A stretch of DNA of 64,000 nucleotides, taken from NCBI GenBank assembly GCA_951406725.2, contig OX597817.1, positions 129,828,001 to 129,892,000 on the forward strand. Reading direction: 5' to 3'. Shown here in pieces: positions 33,549-38,705 of the stretch. Both the position numbers and the translations under genes were made by a program. The first letter of the stretch is position 1; each line of letters starts with the position of its first letter. The notes below the pieces were generated by a model, which saw nothing but the letters and a program-made list of their open reading frames with translations, made no database searches and was not told the DNA's origin. This stretch comes from Octopus vulgaris (taxonomy: Eukaryota).

Positions 33549-33773
33549 GAGTGTATTTTTGCCTTGTTAACAATTAATAATATATATATATATATATATT
33601 TTATTAAATGCACCAGAAATATCAAAAACACTGTTACACAGAGTTTCACGTTCCCGTTCATGAAACTCTGTATAAAAGTGTTTGGGATATTTCTGATGCT
33701 TTTAATAAACCATATTACTCTACGTCTGGTATTTGAGTACTCTTTTTTCCACCTTGTTTCACATTTATGTGCT

Positions 33774-34197
33774 TACTCTTTTACTCTTTTACTTGTTTCA
33801 GTCATTTGACTGTGGCCATGCTAGAGCACCGCCTTTAGTCGAGCAAATCGACCCCAGGACTTATTCTTTGTAAGCCTAGTACTTATTCTATCGGTCTCTT
33901 TTGCCGAACCGCTAAGTTACGGGGACGTAAACACGCAAGCATCGGTTGTCAAGCGATGTTGGGGGACAAACACAGAGACACAAACATATACAAACATACA
34001 TATATATGCATATATGTATGTATATATATATATGCGACAGGCTTCTTTCAGTTTCCGTCTACCAAATCCACTCACAAGGCTTTGGTCGGCCCGAGGCTAT
34101 AGTAGAAGACACTTGCCCAAGGTGCCACGCAATGAGACTGAACCCGGAATCATGTGGTTGGTAAGCAAGCTACTTACCACACAGCCACTCCGACGCC

Positions 34198-34198
<1 letters not shown>
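33774..34198 (-). mobile_element. SINE family A, full-length young copy
   Basis: Head GGCGTCGGAGTGGCTGTGTGGTAAGTAGC, CORE-like GCACCTTGGGCAAGTG, internal (TA/TG)n and a (AGTAAAAG)n tail. Confidence 0.9.
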
Positions 34199-34231
<33 letters not shown>

Positions 34232-34236
34232 TTCAT

Positions 34237-35086
34237 ATACTAAGCAATTAAGGGTTTAGCAACGAATTGCCTCACCACACACCGAATTTAGAAATAGCAG
34301 TCAAAAAGTTATAGCTATTCTTTCTACTAAAAGGGAGATCTCAGTAAAAACACAGCACTTGAAAGGCAAACACAGACAGGTAAGAGAGAATGAAATGACG
34401 GTAATCTATCATACAATTTTAAGTCACCTACGGACGTACGTTTCGAAATTAAGTTTTAGGGAAGCATAAGAATTAGATAATTATATCTTACCCAACTTCT
34501 TTTCTCATCAGCGTAGGACACTACAATTATGAATAATTGTATATTAAATTTCGAGATACTAGAAGGCATCATCTCAACTCAGTATCAGAGCTAGCTAAAG
34601 CCGTTACCAGTACCACCAAATTCAAAGTGTGAATGAAAGTTTGTGTCACCAGCCCCTTCCCACCCGCGTGTAGCCAAGACAAGATGCTGTGGTCATTTAC
34701 TGGGATGAAATATGGTTATCAGTAACAATATAGGGTGAAATTAATTAATTTGGAATAATTATTAATTACACCAAGTAGATTTCGGTATGTAAAAGCCTCA
34801 TTCGAGGAAAATTTAAGTAATACTAAGCAATTAAGGGTTTAGCAACGAATTGCCTCACCACACACCGAATTTAGAAATTGCAGTCAAAAAGTTATAGCTA
34901 TTCTTTCTACTAAAAGGGAGATCTCAGTAAAAACACAGCACTTGAAAGGCAAACACAGACAGGTAAGAGAGAATGAAATGACGGCAATCTATCATACAAT
35001 TTTAAGTCACCTACGGACGTACGTTTCGAAATTAAGTTTTAGGGAAGCATAAGAATTAGATAATTATATCTTACCCAACTTCTTTT
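34237..35086 (-). mobile_element. HHR-containing non-coding retroelement, 1.46 tandem copies of a 583-bp unit (retrozyme-like or non-autonomous Penelope-like)
   Basis: 34237-34503 is directly repeated at 34820-35086 with 2 mismatches in 267 bp. No ORF of 60 aa or more in the track. Carries a hammerhead ribozyme. Confidence 0.8.
34427..34517 (-). ncRNA. Type I hammerhead ribozyme with a 60-nt stem II
   Basis: CCTACG CTGATGA GAAA...(hairpin)...TTTC GAAA C GTAC G TC^ CGTAGG. Stem I is 6 bp, the core is intact, the loop III tetraloop is palindromic, and the site is GUC (cut at 34433/34432). Confidence 0.9.
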
Positions 35087-35237
35087 GACAAATTAAAATG
35101 TTTCAATGTTGATAAATTAGCATGTTCAAACCATATATATAGATATACATCATACATATATACATAATCCATGTGTGTTTGTGTGTGTGCATGTGTGTGC
35201 GTGCGTGCTTGTGTGTGAGTATGTGTTTGTGTGTGTG

Positions 35238-35302
<65 letters not shown>

Positions 35303-36209
35303 ATATATGTGTGTATGCATTAGACTGAACCACTAAAACTTGCTGTACTGCAATAGGCTTACTCTATATTATAATTACGCTGTTAATAAAGCAAGAACAC
35401 AAATTTCTTTTTAAACTCGTGATTTCATTAGTATTCATCTTATATTAACATTCTGGCATCTCTCTCTCTTTCTAGAACTCGGTTTGTTCTCGGGTAGTTC
35501 GTCTTTTACTAAACAGTGACTATCATTATACAGAATTAAGTGCAGGATTTTACATGCATGAGAGAAAAAAGAAAAGGCGCTAAGTTCCGATAAATTGAAC
35601 AGATATTTTCATCTCCTTTCTTGAAAATGGAAAAGCATATAGATTTGTTCTTGGAATCAGAAAACTATTGCTTTTGGGACCAGATCTTTTGACAAATGTT
35701 TGCGAGAATATTTATGTTTCCATTGCTACGTGCTTTAAACCGTTCAGTTGGGAATTCATCTACACCAGCCATGTTTCCATTCTTAATTTCCTTTAAAGCT
35801 TTTCCATCTTCTGCTTCCATAATCAAAGTAGTCAATATTAACATGTTCCAGTGACTTTATCAGATTCTTTAAATGCATTTCCGTGCATTACTTCTATTTT
35901 TCTTTGATTCGGTTTTCTTCAGATTGAGTGTCATCACTCATGTTTCTTTCTAATCGCAAGAAATCTTGGAGAAAATTCGTTTCTTATTTGTTTTATTTAG
36001 CAGTTCTAATATTTGATACAACACCCACGGTTGAAAAAAAATCAAACCAATCTTCTGTCAAAATATAATTCAGTCGCTCGATAAATATCGATCGAGAAAA
36101 TAGCTGTTAGATCCGATATAATTGACTAAAACCGTTTCAGATAGTTTCACTGCATAGTCGTAATGGAACGATAGAAACCGGTAAAAGAAGAAAAGTATAT
36201 ATATATATA

Positions 36210-36590
36210 TAATAAAAGGGTTCAGCAAAGATTTGCTTCACCACACACCGAAGTTTAGAAAAAGCAGCCAAAAATCTTAGCTATTTCTTCTACTTTAAAA
36301 AGGGTCTCCCAGAGAAGCCAAAATACTTGAAGGTTATTCACACAGGCAGAGAGTAAAGCAACGAAAATCAATCAATATCTGATCGTCCATGGACGCCCGT
36401 TTCTGAATTAGGTTTTTCATAAAGAATATAAAATTATACTTTACTAACCATATTCTTCATCAGCATGGCTTTCCACGATAATTCGAATAGTTGAACGAAT
36501 CTTTCCACCTAACGGCATTAGACCGCTGATGTTCAATGTTAACACCGCCAAATTCAAAATATGAATGAGGTTCGCTTAACTTCCCCCGAA
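36210..36590 (-). mobile_element. Diverged sister family of the 583-bp HHR element
   Basis: Collinear homology with 34245-34670 (agggtt.agcaa.ga.ttgc.tcaccacacaccgaa; cac.gccaaattcaaa.t.tgaatga). Has the same 3' end next to (TA)n. Confidence 0.8.
36387..36468 (-). ncRNA. Type I hammerhead ribozyme with a 53-nt stem II
   Basis: CCATG CTGATGA A GAAT..GGTT..TAAAG...CTTTA..AACC..ATTC A GAAA C GGGC G TC^ CATGG. Confidence 0.85.
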
Positions 36591-36608
36591 AGTAAAGAAA
36601 GAAGGAGG

Positions 36609-36643
36609 ATTTAACGTTTCGAGCGGAGCTCTTCGTCAGAAAC
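36609..36643 (-). ncRNA. Minimal (Penelope-type) hammerhead ribozyme in a truncated copy (36595-36714) of the ~205-bp element
   Basis: GTTT CTGACGA A GAGC TCC GCTC GAAAC GTT^ AAAT. Intact core with a palindromic, loopless stem III. Confidence 0.75.
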
Positions 36644-36710
36644 ATAGCAAAAGGAAAGATCCAAGGAAGGGAAGACCGAAGAAAAAAAATCGCCAACGAT
36701 ACGCACGCGG

Positions 36711-36800
<90 letters not shown>

Positions 36801-37248
36801 CTTTGTTTATCAATGGTAAAAGTTTTAAATTATGAATTAGAAAAACATCTTCAAAAGTTTCAATGGTGACAAATTAAAATGTTTCAATGTTGATAAATTA
36901 ACATGTTCAAAACAAATTTAGCAATGTGAATTATGACACGTGTAAGTTTGAATGTTCATAGCAGTCAATAATATTAAAACTATATATCACTTTTGTTAGA
37001 ATGTACAAAGTTCATTATTTTAGTGATGGTCGACAAGTCATACTGAAAAAAACAAGTATGAATTTGGCTTACAGATTCTCTGATCCTATTCTAGGGGACG
37101 CTTTCGCTTGTAGTGGTATGGTTTGTGATCAGATGTATTTATACTTTTTTTCCGCGGAAAAAAGTATAAATACATATATGATGACAAAACATACCTCTGT
37201 AAACCAAAATACTTTTTTTACTATTTTCATTTCACAGTTGTTTTATCA

Positions 37249-37334
<86 letters not shown>

Positions 37335-37486
37335 CATATATACGATGGGCTTCTTTCAGTTTCGTCTACCAAATCCACTCGCAAAGCTTTGGTCAGCTCA
37401 GCGCTATAGTAGAAGACACTTACTCAAGGTGCCACGCAGTGGGAGTGAACCCGGTTGGTAAGTAAGTTACTTACTGCAGAGCCACT

Positions 37487-37572
<86 letters not shown>

Positions 37573-37655
37573 GGTCCCGGGTTGATTCGGGGTTAACCAC
37601 AGTAAAAAAGGTACTCAATACATAGCAGAGTAAAATTAATTTATTATATAGAAGG

Positions 37656-37704
37656 AGCTTCTACAGGACTAGAACTGTTTCATTCAAGAGAAATCATCAG
37701 GAAG

Positions 37705-37706
<2 letters not shown>
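37656..37706 (-). ncRNA. Type I hammerhead ribozyme in a ~140-bp insert (37570-37708) within (TA)n
   Basis: AGCTTC CTGATGA T TTC TCTT GAA T GAAA CAG TTCTAGTC CTG TA^ GAAGCT. Stem I is 6 bp, stem III is 4 bp, the site is GUA, and AATAAA lies downstream. Confidence 0.88.
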
Positions 37707-37770
<64 letters not shown>

Positions 37771-37774
37771 TCCG

Positions 37775-37818
<44 letters not shown>

Positions 37819-37998
37819 GGTATATTTATTTTATCTTATTTTATCTAGTTTCAGCTCACGAGCTGTGGCCATGCTGGGGCACCGCCATTATATGTATATA
37901 TAATGCATATATGTATATATAATGTATATATGAATATATGCATATATGTATATATCTGTATACACACACACGCGTGCATGCACGCACACGCACGCACA

Positions 37999-38037
<39 letters not shown>

Positions 38038-38134
38038 GATGTTAAAGAAGTATTTCCACAATTCTATATTCTGAGATGGGGAATCTATATTATGTACACT
38101 AATTACATTAGCTGGAACCGAGTTCGACGCAAAA

Positions 38135-38176
38135 CACCTGAAGATGGCTGGAGCTAACAACGGCCGAAACGTAGTG
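38135..38176 (+). ncRNA. Minimal (Penelope-type) hammerhead ribozyme
   Basis: CAC CTGAAGA T GGCTG GAGCTAACAA CGGCC GAAAC GTA^ GTG. Confidence 0.8.
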
Positions 38177-38297
38177 AAAGTAACAATCAAGATGAGGACA
38201 CTAGTCTAACTAATGTAAATAGTGTACATAAGTATTTCCACTCTATATATTGAGTATTTAGCTTTAAACTCTGCTTCTTAAACACAATATACATCAG

Positions 38298-38373
<76 letters not shown>

Positions 38374-38377
<4 letters not shown>

Positions 38378-38705
38378 AAGCTTTATGAAAATAGACAAAA
38401 AGACGCAGCCAGGTTTACGGAAATAAACAAAAGACGAAGGCAGGTGGAATACAAACAAACAATTGTATTAGTATGGCGCTCAGGAAATATAAATGAAACA
38501 AGTCTTTAACGTTTCGAGCCTACGCTCTTCAACAGAAATATACACAGAGAAAATAAACACAGAAAGAAGGAGAAAAAAAAATATGCGTGCAGAAGCTAGC
38601 GAAACAACATGGCGATCTGATTTCAGCCAGAAGTCAAAGATCAAACATGAGACGCAAGAGCGAAATTAGGGAAGATAATAGGGTTGAATGACCCCGCTCA
38701 AACAT
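38374..38705 (-). mobile_element. Penelope pLTR-like element with a variant minimal HHR (38505-38538)
   Basis: TTT CTGTTGA A GAGC GTAG GCTC GAAAC GTT AAA (core change A6U). The downstream ctgagcg.ca...aata tract is homologous to the ~205-bp family. The 3' end abuts (TA)n. Confidence 0.65.

Follow-up and report, generated by a model that had tools for sequence, protein, structure and literature searches.

Why should so many hammerhead ribozyme (HHR) motifs lie within 5 kb of Octopus vulgaris DNA, why do their carriers adjoin (TA)n runs, and does their apparent preference for the minus strand reflect selection? We addressed these questions for positions 33549-38705 of a 64-kb window, the whole 64,000-nucleotide stretch of contig OX597817.1 that was analysed. 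We consider it probable (roughly 0.78) that these HHRs, of type I and minimal or atypical in form, ride on short retroelements without coding capacity that descend from Penelope-like element (PLE) pseudo-LTRs (solo pLTR remnants, non-autonomous PLE derivatives and retrozyme-like units), that the motifs are clustered via dense TA runs, and that their orientation is a small-number effect.

Hammerhead motifs in the 5-kb stretch

A strict type I HHR descriptor found four motifs in the 64-kb window, all four of them within 33549-38705 (34427-34517, 36609-36643 and 37656-37706 on the minus strand, and 38135-38176 on the plus strand), whereas block-wise dinucleotide shuffling (60 replicates) yielded 0.017 per window. 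With one core mismatch permitted, nine motifs were found in the window and five in 33549-38705, compared with 1.03 and 0.07 in the shuffles; the one-mismatch motifs at 599 and 32081 are within the chance rate and were left out of further counts. Together with the elements that carry them, the features of the stretch are as follows.

33594..33715, no strand: long imperfect hairpin (inverted repeat) by a TA run, fold z -11
34237..35086, minus: carrier A, a unit of 583 nt (34819-34237) with a partial copy of 267 nt (35086-34820) ahead of it
34427..34517, minus: HHR A1, with CUGAUGA, a 6-bp stem I, G10.1-C11.1 and an 8-nt palindromic helix III
35010..35086, minus: HHR A2, the 3' part of the A1 motif, beginning inside loop II, with CUGAUGA missing
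36212..36588, minus: carrier B, a homologue of A, 3' end on (TA)8
36588..36711, minus: carrier C36, a diverged copy of the 205-bp family C, ~90 nt missing at the 3' end, abutting the 5' end of B
37570..37707, minus: carrier D, 138 nt long with a (TA)n run on either side, its ends set by the TA runs only
38043..38254, plus: carrier E, a ~182-nt unit with a ~30-nt terminal direct repeat
38300..38374, no strand: run of (TA)37, with the 3' side of E (plus, 46 nt off) and that of F (minus, adjacent) turned towards it
38375..38705, minus: carrier F, with an HHR-like motif at 38505-38538 of core CUGUUGA (A6U), 5' limit approximate

The preliminary description had listed eight complete or partial HHRs, and seven of these are real type I HHRs or parts of one. 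Five (A1, B, C36, D and E) combine an intact CUGANGA core, GAAA and a UH cut site closed by stem I, B having been missed by the strict descriptor owing to its stem III rule (B has 3 bp and a 2-nt non-palindromic loop); F carries A6U and A2 is partial. The eighth candidate, at 33630-33662, was rejected as an HHR, the CUGANGA core being absent even with one mismatch; 33594-33715 is a plain hairpin of 120 nt, and none of 200 shuffles folded as stably.

The six full-length motifs vary in their finer anatomy. An unpaired nucleotide between A9 and 10.1 is present in three of them (C36, E and F) and absent from A1, with a mismatch in B and D; a G10.1-C11.1 pair is present in four (A1, C36, E and F), with A.A in B and U.U in D. 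Helix III is an 8-nt palindrome in A1 (duplex -9.8 kcal/mol) and a 4-nt one in C36, E and F; that of B is not palindromic, and D has a 4-bp stem with a loop. PLE minimal HHRs are reported to have an extra nucleotide after A9, G10.1-C11.1 and a palindromic helix III (PMC4209133), and all three occur together in C36, E and F. The short motifs mostly lack a hammerhead fold in single-strand MFE predictions, with stabilities not above those of shuffles, as is expected of minimal HHRs. Rfam gave no hammerhead match at gathering score in the 64-kb window; at E 5, no hammerhead was present among the 150 of 371 matches listed, nor among three matches in 34200-35150.

Since A and B are homologous, C and F related, and D and E without a relative in the window, the sequence comparisons indicate four lineages (six subfamilies if split finer), where at least five families had been proposed, and five or six insertions rather than eight independent events.

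A pattern scan of prokaryote genomes returned 19 loci, none with a hammerhead core, and one of metagenomes returned eight, of which four have a C(U/C)GACGA core (two U4, two C4). Two of the metagenome loci, L004 and L008, resemble one element.

Carriers of the motifs

Carrier A (unit GC 36%) is a partial tandem of 1.46 units, in which a direct repeat of 267 nt (99% identity, spacing 583 nt) makes A2 a duplicate of A1; its 3' end lies 5 nt from a (TA)n run. A1 has a long stem-loop II and a predicted GUC cut site at 34433, and the circular fold of A has a z of -4.8 (0/40 shuffles). Carrier B is 64.5% identical to A over 358 columns, and its HHR at 36387-36468 (minus) has an intact core, a 5-bp stem I and A.A at 10.1-11.1; its circular fold is weaker (z -1.6). 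Along B, summed contig depth drops from 535,450 (3' end) to 1,154 (close to the 5' end), the course predicted by 5' truncation, though the drop may partly reflect divergence from the family, and summed contig depth is no copy number.

HHR D, at 37656-37706 on the minus strand, has a 6-bp stem I, a 4-bp stem III, U.U at 10.1-11.1 and a predicted GUA cut site; its carrier has a circular-fold z of -1.25. HHR E, at 38135-38176 on the plus strand, has CUGAAGA, GUA and a 3-bp stem I, and is flanked by a 27-bp inverted repeat (38090-38116/38205-38231); the circular fold of this carrier has a z of -3.8 (0/200 shuffles).

The HHR of C36 (36609-36643, minus) has the core CUGACGA, and loose contig ends occur at its junction with B (36588-36599). 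Three further copies of family C lie elsewhere in the window.

41998..42201, plus: family C copy, CCGACGA (U4C), 3' end at (TA)n
45613..45821, plus: family C copy, CCGACGA, 3' end at (TA)n
59331..59540, plus: family C copy, CCGACGA and a helix III change, 3' end at (TA)n

These three are 94-95% identical and have U4C in common. Families C and F share HHR and 3' blocks at 54-57% identity, as distant relatives, and their circular folds have z values of 0.0 (F) and +1.35 (the copy at 45613). Family C is the most abundant of the carriers: its summed contig depth, which is no copy number, reaches 2.2-2.7 million in run X1, where the unique flank has 46.6, and is ~10^4-10^5 times that of the unique flank in DNA runs of three organisms. 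In the contigs of run X13, presumed to be RNA, the unique flank (35320-36165) was without cover, which says nothing about expression or strand.

Proposed origin of the carriers

We propose that a PLE RT/GIY-YIG protein encoded elsewhere would nick AT-rich DNA and start reverse transcription at a point 80-200 nt beyond the HHR on its 3' side, using RNA that is uncleaved, tandem or circular; each copy would thereby retain sequence from either side of the cut site. The distance from cut site to carrier 3' end is 81-196 nt. PLE hallmarks are reported to include partial tandems, 30-40-bp tails and a (TA)n bias (PMC8557442), and a partial-tandem layout or tail is present in two of the six carriers of the cluster, namely A (583-nt unit plus 267-nt copy) and E (~30-nt terminal repeat). 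The cluster would have arisen as elements landed in already-used runs in a region where TA runs are dense.

Neither a PLE RT nor a GIY-YIG endonuclease was found in the 150 of 155 window ORFs of at least 55 aa that were scanned, so the carriers are not autonomous PLEs; a PLE ORF was likewise absent from the 42 ORFs next to the metagenome hammerhead-like loci. Because PLE ORFs are absent in both settings, the link of the carriers to PLEs is best regarded as one of resemblance only. The earlier suggestion of a shared PLE-type machinery acting at AT microsatellites thus stands in part: a PLE-type origin and the (TA)n association fit the anatomy of the carriers, whereas no such ORF was found in the window and TA runs also adjoin a repeat without an HHR; it is the sharing of machinery that we infer.

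TA runs, clustering and strand

Carriers had been described as lying in or beside (TA)n runs, and they do: seven of nine 3' ends in the window lie at most 10 nt from (TA)4+, against a background of 3.2%, a count that includes D, whose ends are defined by TA runs. The adjacency is not specific to HHR carriers, since a non-HHR repeat has one end at most 15 nt from a TA run in six of nine copies. This shared adjacency would also be expected if the carriers were SINE-like passengers of LINEs and the (TA)n runs were element-made tails rather than targets, an explanation to which LINE-type RT fragments in the window (RVT_1 in 3/150 ORFs) and the family C 5' end, fixed in all four runs compared (loose ends at 36702), lend some support. 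We nevertheless regard it as quite improbable: D is flanked by TA on both sides, the partial tandem of A and the terminal repeat of E are typical of PLEs, the spacing from HHR to 3' end fits PLE internal initiation, and ARAGORN found no tRNA genes in the window. Whether the stretch is a true local hotspot beyond its TA density, seeded by an active retrozyme-like source (A or E) copying itself nearby or favoured by a chromatin feature, is a separate matter. The window's five intact cores all fall in a 3.75-kb span (p 5.5e-5 under uniform placement), A2 is recent judging from its 99% identity to A1, and both A and E are predicted to fold as self-paired circles. However, four unrelated lineages cannot be local copies from one source, and a second complete HHR is missing from both A and E; moreover, although uniform placement gives clustering p values of 0.0004-0.004 for a stretch chosen post hoc, events placed randomly on TA runs give 0.057-0.12. 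A local hotspot is therefore unlikely, and the cluster is real but ordinary, largely following TA-run density.

The strand distribution had been given as seven of eight motifs on the minus strand and ascribed to selection against self-cleaving RNA in the sense strand of a host transcript. Once the hairpin and the tandem duplicate are removed, five of six events in the cluster (p 0.22) and five of nine window-wide (p 1.0) are minus, so the idea of selection is not supported. If the window were an intron of a plus-strand gene in which purifying selection had removed or inactivated sense-strand HHRs and left the minus ones, the minus orientation of four of the five intact cores would follow, and Xenopus retrozymes are indeed depleted in introns and exons (preprint 10.64898/2026.07.22.740005, whose available part reports no orientation test). 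Yet four of five gives p 0.375; the sole plus carrier of the cluster, E, has an intact core and the minus carrier F a mutated one; and core state shows no significant association with strand (Fisher p 0.21, or 1.0 with the plus copies of family C collapsed). The mutated cores of the three plus copies, all CCGACGA as had been described, fail as support for selection because the same U4C at 94-95% identity marks one inherited state rather than three inactivations. PLE minimal HHRs tested as single motifs in vitro are reported to show no detectable cleavage (PMC4209133), so a lone copy should cost little; we detected no host exon defining a sense strand in the 64-kb window, and found no literature on an intron orientation bias of HHR elements. 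Intronic selection is thus most improbable, and under the PLE-derived reading the minus excess would be an effect of small numbers.

Family C and a weakened core

The CUGACGA core of C36 could have arisen by CpG decay from CCGACGA or could mark an older subfamily with a canonical core. A CpG transition is indeed what separates the two cores, but C36 differs at 1/18 CpG sites and 12/107 other sites and so has no CpG excess, which makes an older subfamily as likely as decay. It is conceivable, though on the doubtful side, that family C was amplified from a master with a weakened core (U4C) and F from one with A6U, the HHR fold being retained for docking or positioning of the PLE RT and cleavage given up as template-cutting, and that the junction of C36 with B at 36588 records one RT switching templates from one HHR-carrying RNA to another. 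If true, this C-to-B junction would be direct evidence for shared machinery. The role of the hammerhead in PLEs is described as an open question (PMC8557442, PMC11167929). Should family C prove to be very high-copy with a weakened core fixed, its tens of thousands of U4 or C4 copies, sorted by age and by orientation in introns, would make selection on cleavage (for, against or none) testable.

Comparison with known systems

One close likeness is to the minimal type I HHRs that Cervera and de la Pena described in PLEs (2014, PMC4209133), which have in common with the window motifs the type I layout, a short stem I, a palindromic helix III and, for three of the six full-length motifs here, an extra nucleotide after A9, occur as many families per genome, mostly in solo copies ascribed to truncated PLEs, and are sometimes found close together on opposite strands. 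The window carriers differ in lacking a flanking PLE ORF and, in A and B, in a stem-loop II of ~60 nt; U4C of family C and A6U of F are not named in the accessible parts of that report. Animal non-LTR retrozymes (PMC7229834; 10.64898/2026.07.22.740005) resemble the carriers in being non-coding and low in GC (36% for the A unit), in unit length (182 and 583 nt here), in the predicted self-paired circular fold of A and E, and in a proposed PLE origin. Unlike them, judging from the accessible parts of both sources, no carrier has an array of two complete HHRs (A has one complete and one partial, E one), C, D and F are not rod-folding, and the carriers are known here from sequence and predicted folds.

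In PAc, the Anolis Poseidon PLE (Frangieh et al. 2024, PMC11167929), the cut site is placed at +26 and the RT start at +111-118, cleavage favours DNA rich in AT, and the template is mainly RNA left unprocessed. AT-rich targets and an insertion end lying ~90 nt from the HHR cut site on its 3' side resemble what we observe, and an uncleaved template is what we infer for the window carriers; PAc, however, is autonomous, with its ORF start in stem II, whereas the window carriers have no ORF. The Neptune and Naiad clades (Craig et al. 2021, PMC8557442) share the microsatellite insertion bias, partial tandems and tails, Naiads being biased to (TA)n and a similar bias being attributed to Neptune. Since Naiads are described there as lacking canonical HHRs and as mere remnants in cephalopods, a clade that does bear HHRs, Neptune or Poseidon for instance, would be the likelier driver. 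The cephalopod HHR families here may be undescribed, none appearing in the titles and abstract openings found, though HHR alignments in supplements may include cephalopod motifs. The PLE-type origin and (TA)n association of such elements are already published, and the carriers add host-specific families to this known class of HHR-bearing PLE derivatives in TA microsatellites.

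Hammerhead motifs and their carriers

A descriptor of type I hammerhead ribozymes (HHRs), comprising the core CUGANGA, stem II, GAAA, helix III, UH and stem I, matched four motifs in the window, all four within 33549–38705, against 0.017 per shuffled window. A fifth intact core, at 36387, was missed solely through the helix III rule. The motif at 38505 has the core CUGUUGA (A6U), and that at 35010–35086 corresponds to the 3′ portion of the motif at 34427, within a 267-nt repeat at 99% identity. Seven of the eight motifs of the preliminary description are therefore retained (five intact, one mutated, one partial). 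We rejected the eighth, at 33630, which is strandless, lacks a core and lies inside a long hairpin (fold z −11). This nearly perfect hairpin of ~120 nt (33594–33715), present once in the window and adjoining a TA run, is possibly a foldback or MITE-like element. A second inverted-repeat element (~90 nt, 37112–37198) is 84% self-complementary by self-blast. The carriers, and the coding remnants elsewhere in the window, are:

34237–35086, minus: carrier A, a unit of 583 nt together with 267 nt from another unit, which starts within loop II
36212–36588, minus: carrier B
36588–36711, minus: carrier C36, a diverged copy of the 205-bp family C without its 3′ ~90 nt, directly joined to the 5′ end of B
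37570–37707, minus: carrier D
38043–38254, plus: carrier E, whose 182-nt unit has a terminal repeat of ~30 nt; an inverted repeat of 27 bp flanks the HHR
38375–38705, minus: carrier F
41998–42201, 45613–45821 (C45) and 59331–59540, plus: further copies of family C
30916–31833: Tc1/mariner transposase, rather well kept, in two adjacent frames (HTH_Tnp_Tc3_2 and DDE_3)
5293–5898, 20626–21457, 48214–48459 and 49699–50166: pieces of LINE-type reverse transcriptase (RVT_1, zf-RVT)

A and B align at 64.5% over 358 columns, C and F share the HHR, the block 3′ of it and a T-rich end, and D and E have no relatives within the window. A 25-nt block 5′ of the HHR, 88% alike in A (34612–34636) and B (36544–36568) between diverged flanks, is possibly a promoter or protein-binding site. 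Circular folds of A (0/40) and E (0/200) exceeded all shuffles; those of B, C45, D and F showed no clear excess. The cut site lies 81–196 nt from the 3′ end in the seven carriers measured. Since every carrier retains sequence 5′ of this site, the copied RNA would have been uncleaved, religated or circular. Contigs from all four sequencing runs depart from the window at 36588–36599 and continue into usual family C sequence. The C36–B junction may reflect a template switch, or insertion followed by deletion.

The window has a GC content of 32–49%, with ~21% tandem repeat. Strong GC skew arises from long microsatellite fields, G-rich and of AGT-type trinucleotides (13780–15850, 39900–41070), and a 24-nt minisatellite unit recurs at 5215–5320, 35087–35139 and 36802–36920, one copy immediately adjoining the 5′ end of A. 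A Pfam scan of 150 of the 155 non-repetitive ORFs of at least 55 aa gave RVT_1 in three, zf-RVT in one, Tc1 transposase in two and two weak matches under the cut-off; it returned no Penelope-like element (PLE) protein and no host exon, exons below 55 aa escaping such a scan.

Abundance, TA runs and clustering

Contigs from the four runs were aligned on 35320–36705, and their depths summed. Unique flank depth was 46.6, ~149 and 6 in runs X1, X3 and X8, respectively, and family C reached summed depths, which are not copy numbers, of 2.2–2.7, 1.8–2.6 and 0.28–0.48 million. In X1, depth along B dropped from 535,450 (3′ end) through 7,749 (HHR) to 1,154 close to the 5′ end. The only reading we draw is that both families are very common in three organisms, B being weighted towards its 3′ end. 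HHR carriers are therefore common genomic background here, which makes the cluster less surprising.

The proposed placement of carriers in or beside (TA)n runs is borne out: the 3′ end is no more than 10 nt from a run of at least (TA)4 in 7/9 carriers, against 3.2% of positions, the exceptions being the truncated C36 and E (46 nt off). For D this is circular, as its ends were defined by TA runs; those of the other six were fixed by alignment. Loose ends past the 3′ end of B are also TA-rich (X1 and X3 contigs). Two SINE-like repeats served as controls; they occur as a frequent pair with a microsatellite in between (33776–34200 and at least eight other window sites), and many ends of the window's SINE-like repeats touch TA or CA runs. 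In 6/9 copies of one control, a non-HHR repeat, a TA run lay no further than 15 nt from one end, rendering the association less specific. In post hoc tests, uniform placement made the clustering improbable (p 0.0004 for 6/9 events, 0.0035 for 5/8), but random assignment of events to the 85 (TA)5+ runs did not (p 0.057 and 0.12).

Strand bias and the family C core

The minus-strand skew first described (7/8, p 0.07) included the hairpin and counted A twice. By events it becomes 5/6 (p 0.22), or 4/5 with C36–B as one event (p 0.375), and 5/9 over the whole window (p 1.0); the control repeat shows five plus and four minus copies. The three plus-strand family C copies do all have a mutated core, CCGACGA (U4C), as had been described. 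Because they are 94–95% identical to one another and C36 is only 85–87% identical to them, this represents one inherited state: Fisher's p for strand against core state was 0.21, and 1.0 after collapsing them. E, on the plus strand, keeps an intact core, with a stem I of just 3 bp. Given these non-significant counts, the single U4C state and E, selection against sense-strand HHRs in a host transcript is unsupported within the window.

Might a weakened-core master instead have given rise to family C, with the HHR fold retained for reverse transcriptase docking? We put this at about one in four. U4C is common to 3/4 family C copies in the window, and copying from RNA that would have been uncleaved points the same way. 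So does the same C4 core in an unrelated metagenome element (L004, L008). Five loci on contigs of 37–42% GC (L003, L004, L005, L007, L008), probably animal DNA within metagenomes, form one minimal HHR family with a motif close to that of family C; the core has U4 at L003 and L007, C4 at L004 and L008. Against it, U4C may keep some activity; this known natural variant is reported to have considerably lowered activity in vitro while still permitting viroid infectivity (PMC3088659). The same source gives low activity for A6 changes, its text leaving A6U unmentioned. A neutral change in one family C master explains the same data as the weakened-core master.

Comparison with known systems

Minimal type I HHRs are described in PLE pseudo-LTRs, with an additional nucleotide after A9, G10.1–C11.1 and a palindromic helix III; solo copies reach thousands per genome in many families, and cleavage by single motifs is reported as not detectable (Cervera and de la Pena 2014, PMC4209133). 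PLE traits include partial tandems, 30–40-bp tails and microsatellite bias (Craig et al. 2021, PMC8557442). For the anole PLE, nicking is reported at AT-rich DNA, the HHR cutting at +26, reverse transcription starting at +111–118 and insertion in vitro being unaffected by HHR mutants (Frangieh et al. 2024, PMC11167929). In Octopus vulgaris, 31 Penelope-like families are given as recently active (PMC13282606). Non-LTR retrozymes are described as units of 51–972 bp of proposed PLE origin, depleted in genes (Cervera and de la Pena 2020, PMC7229834; 2026 preprint 10.64898/2026.07.22.740005), the preprint reporting no cleavage in 8/9 elements tested. The carriers differ from autonomous PLEs in having no ORF and do not qualify as active retrozymes, which are defined by two HHRs. 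In their workings they probably resemble PLE pseudo-LTR derivatives and, in the case of A and E, retrozyme units; they would add to an already described kind of HHR-bearing PLE pseudo-LTR derivative or retrozyme-like unit.
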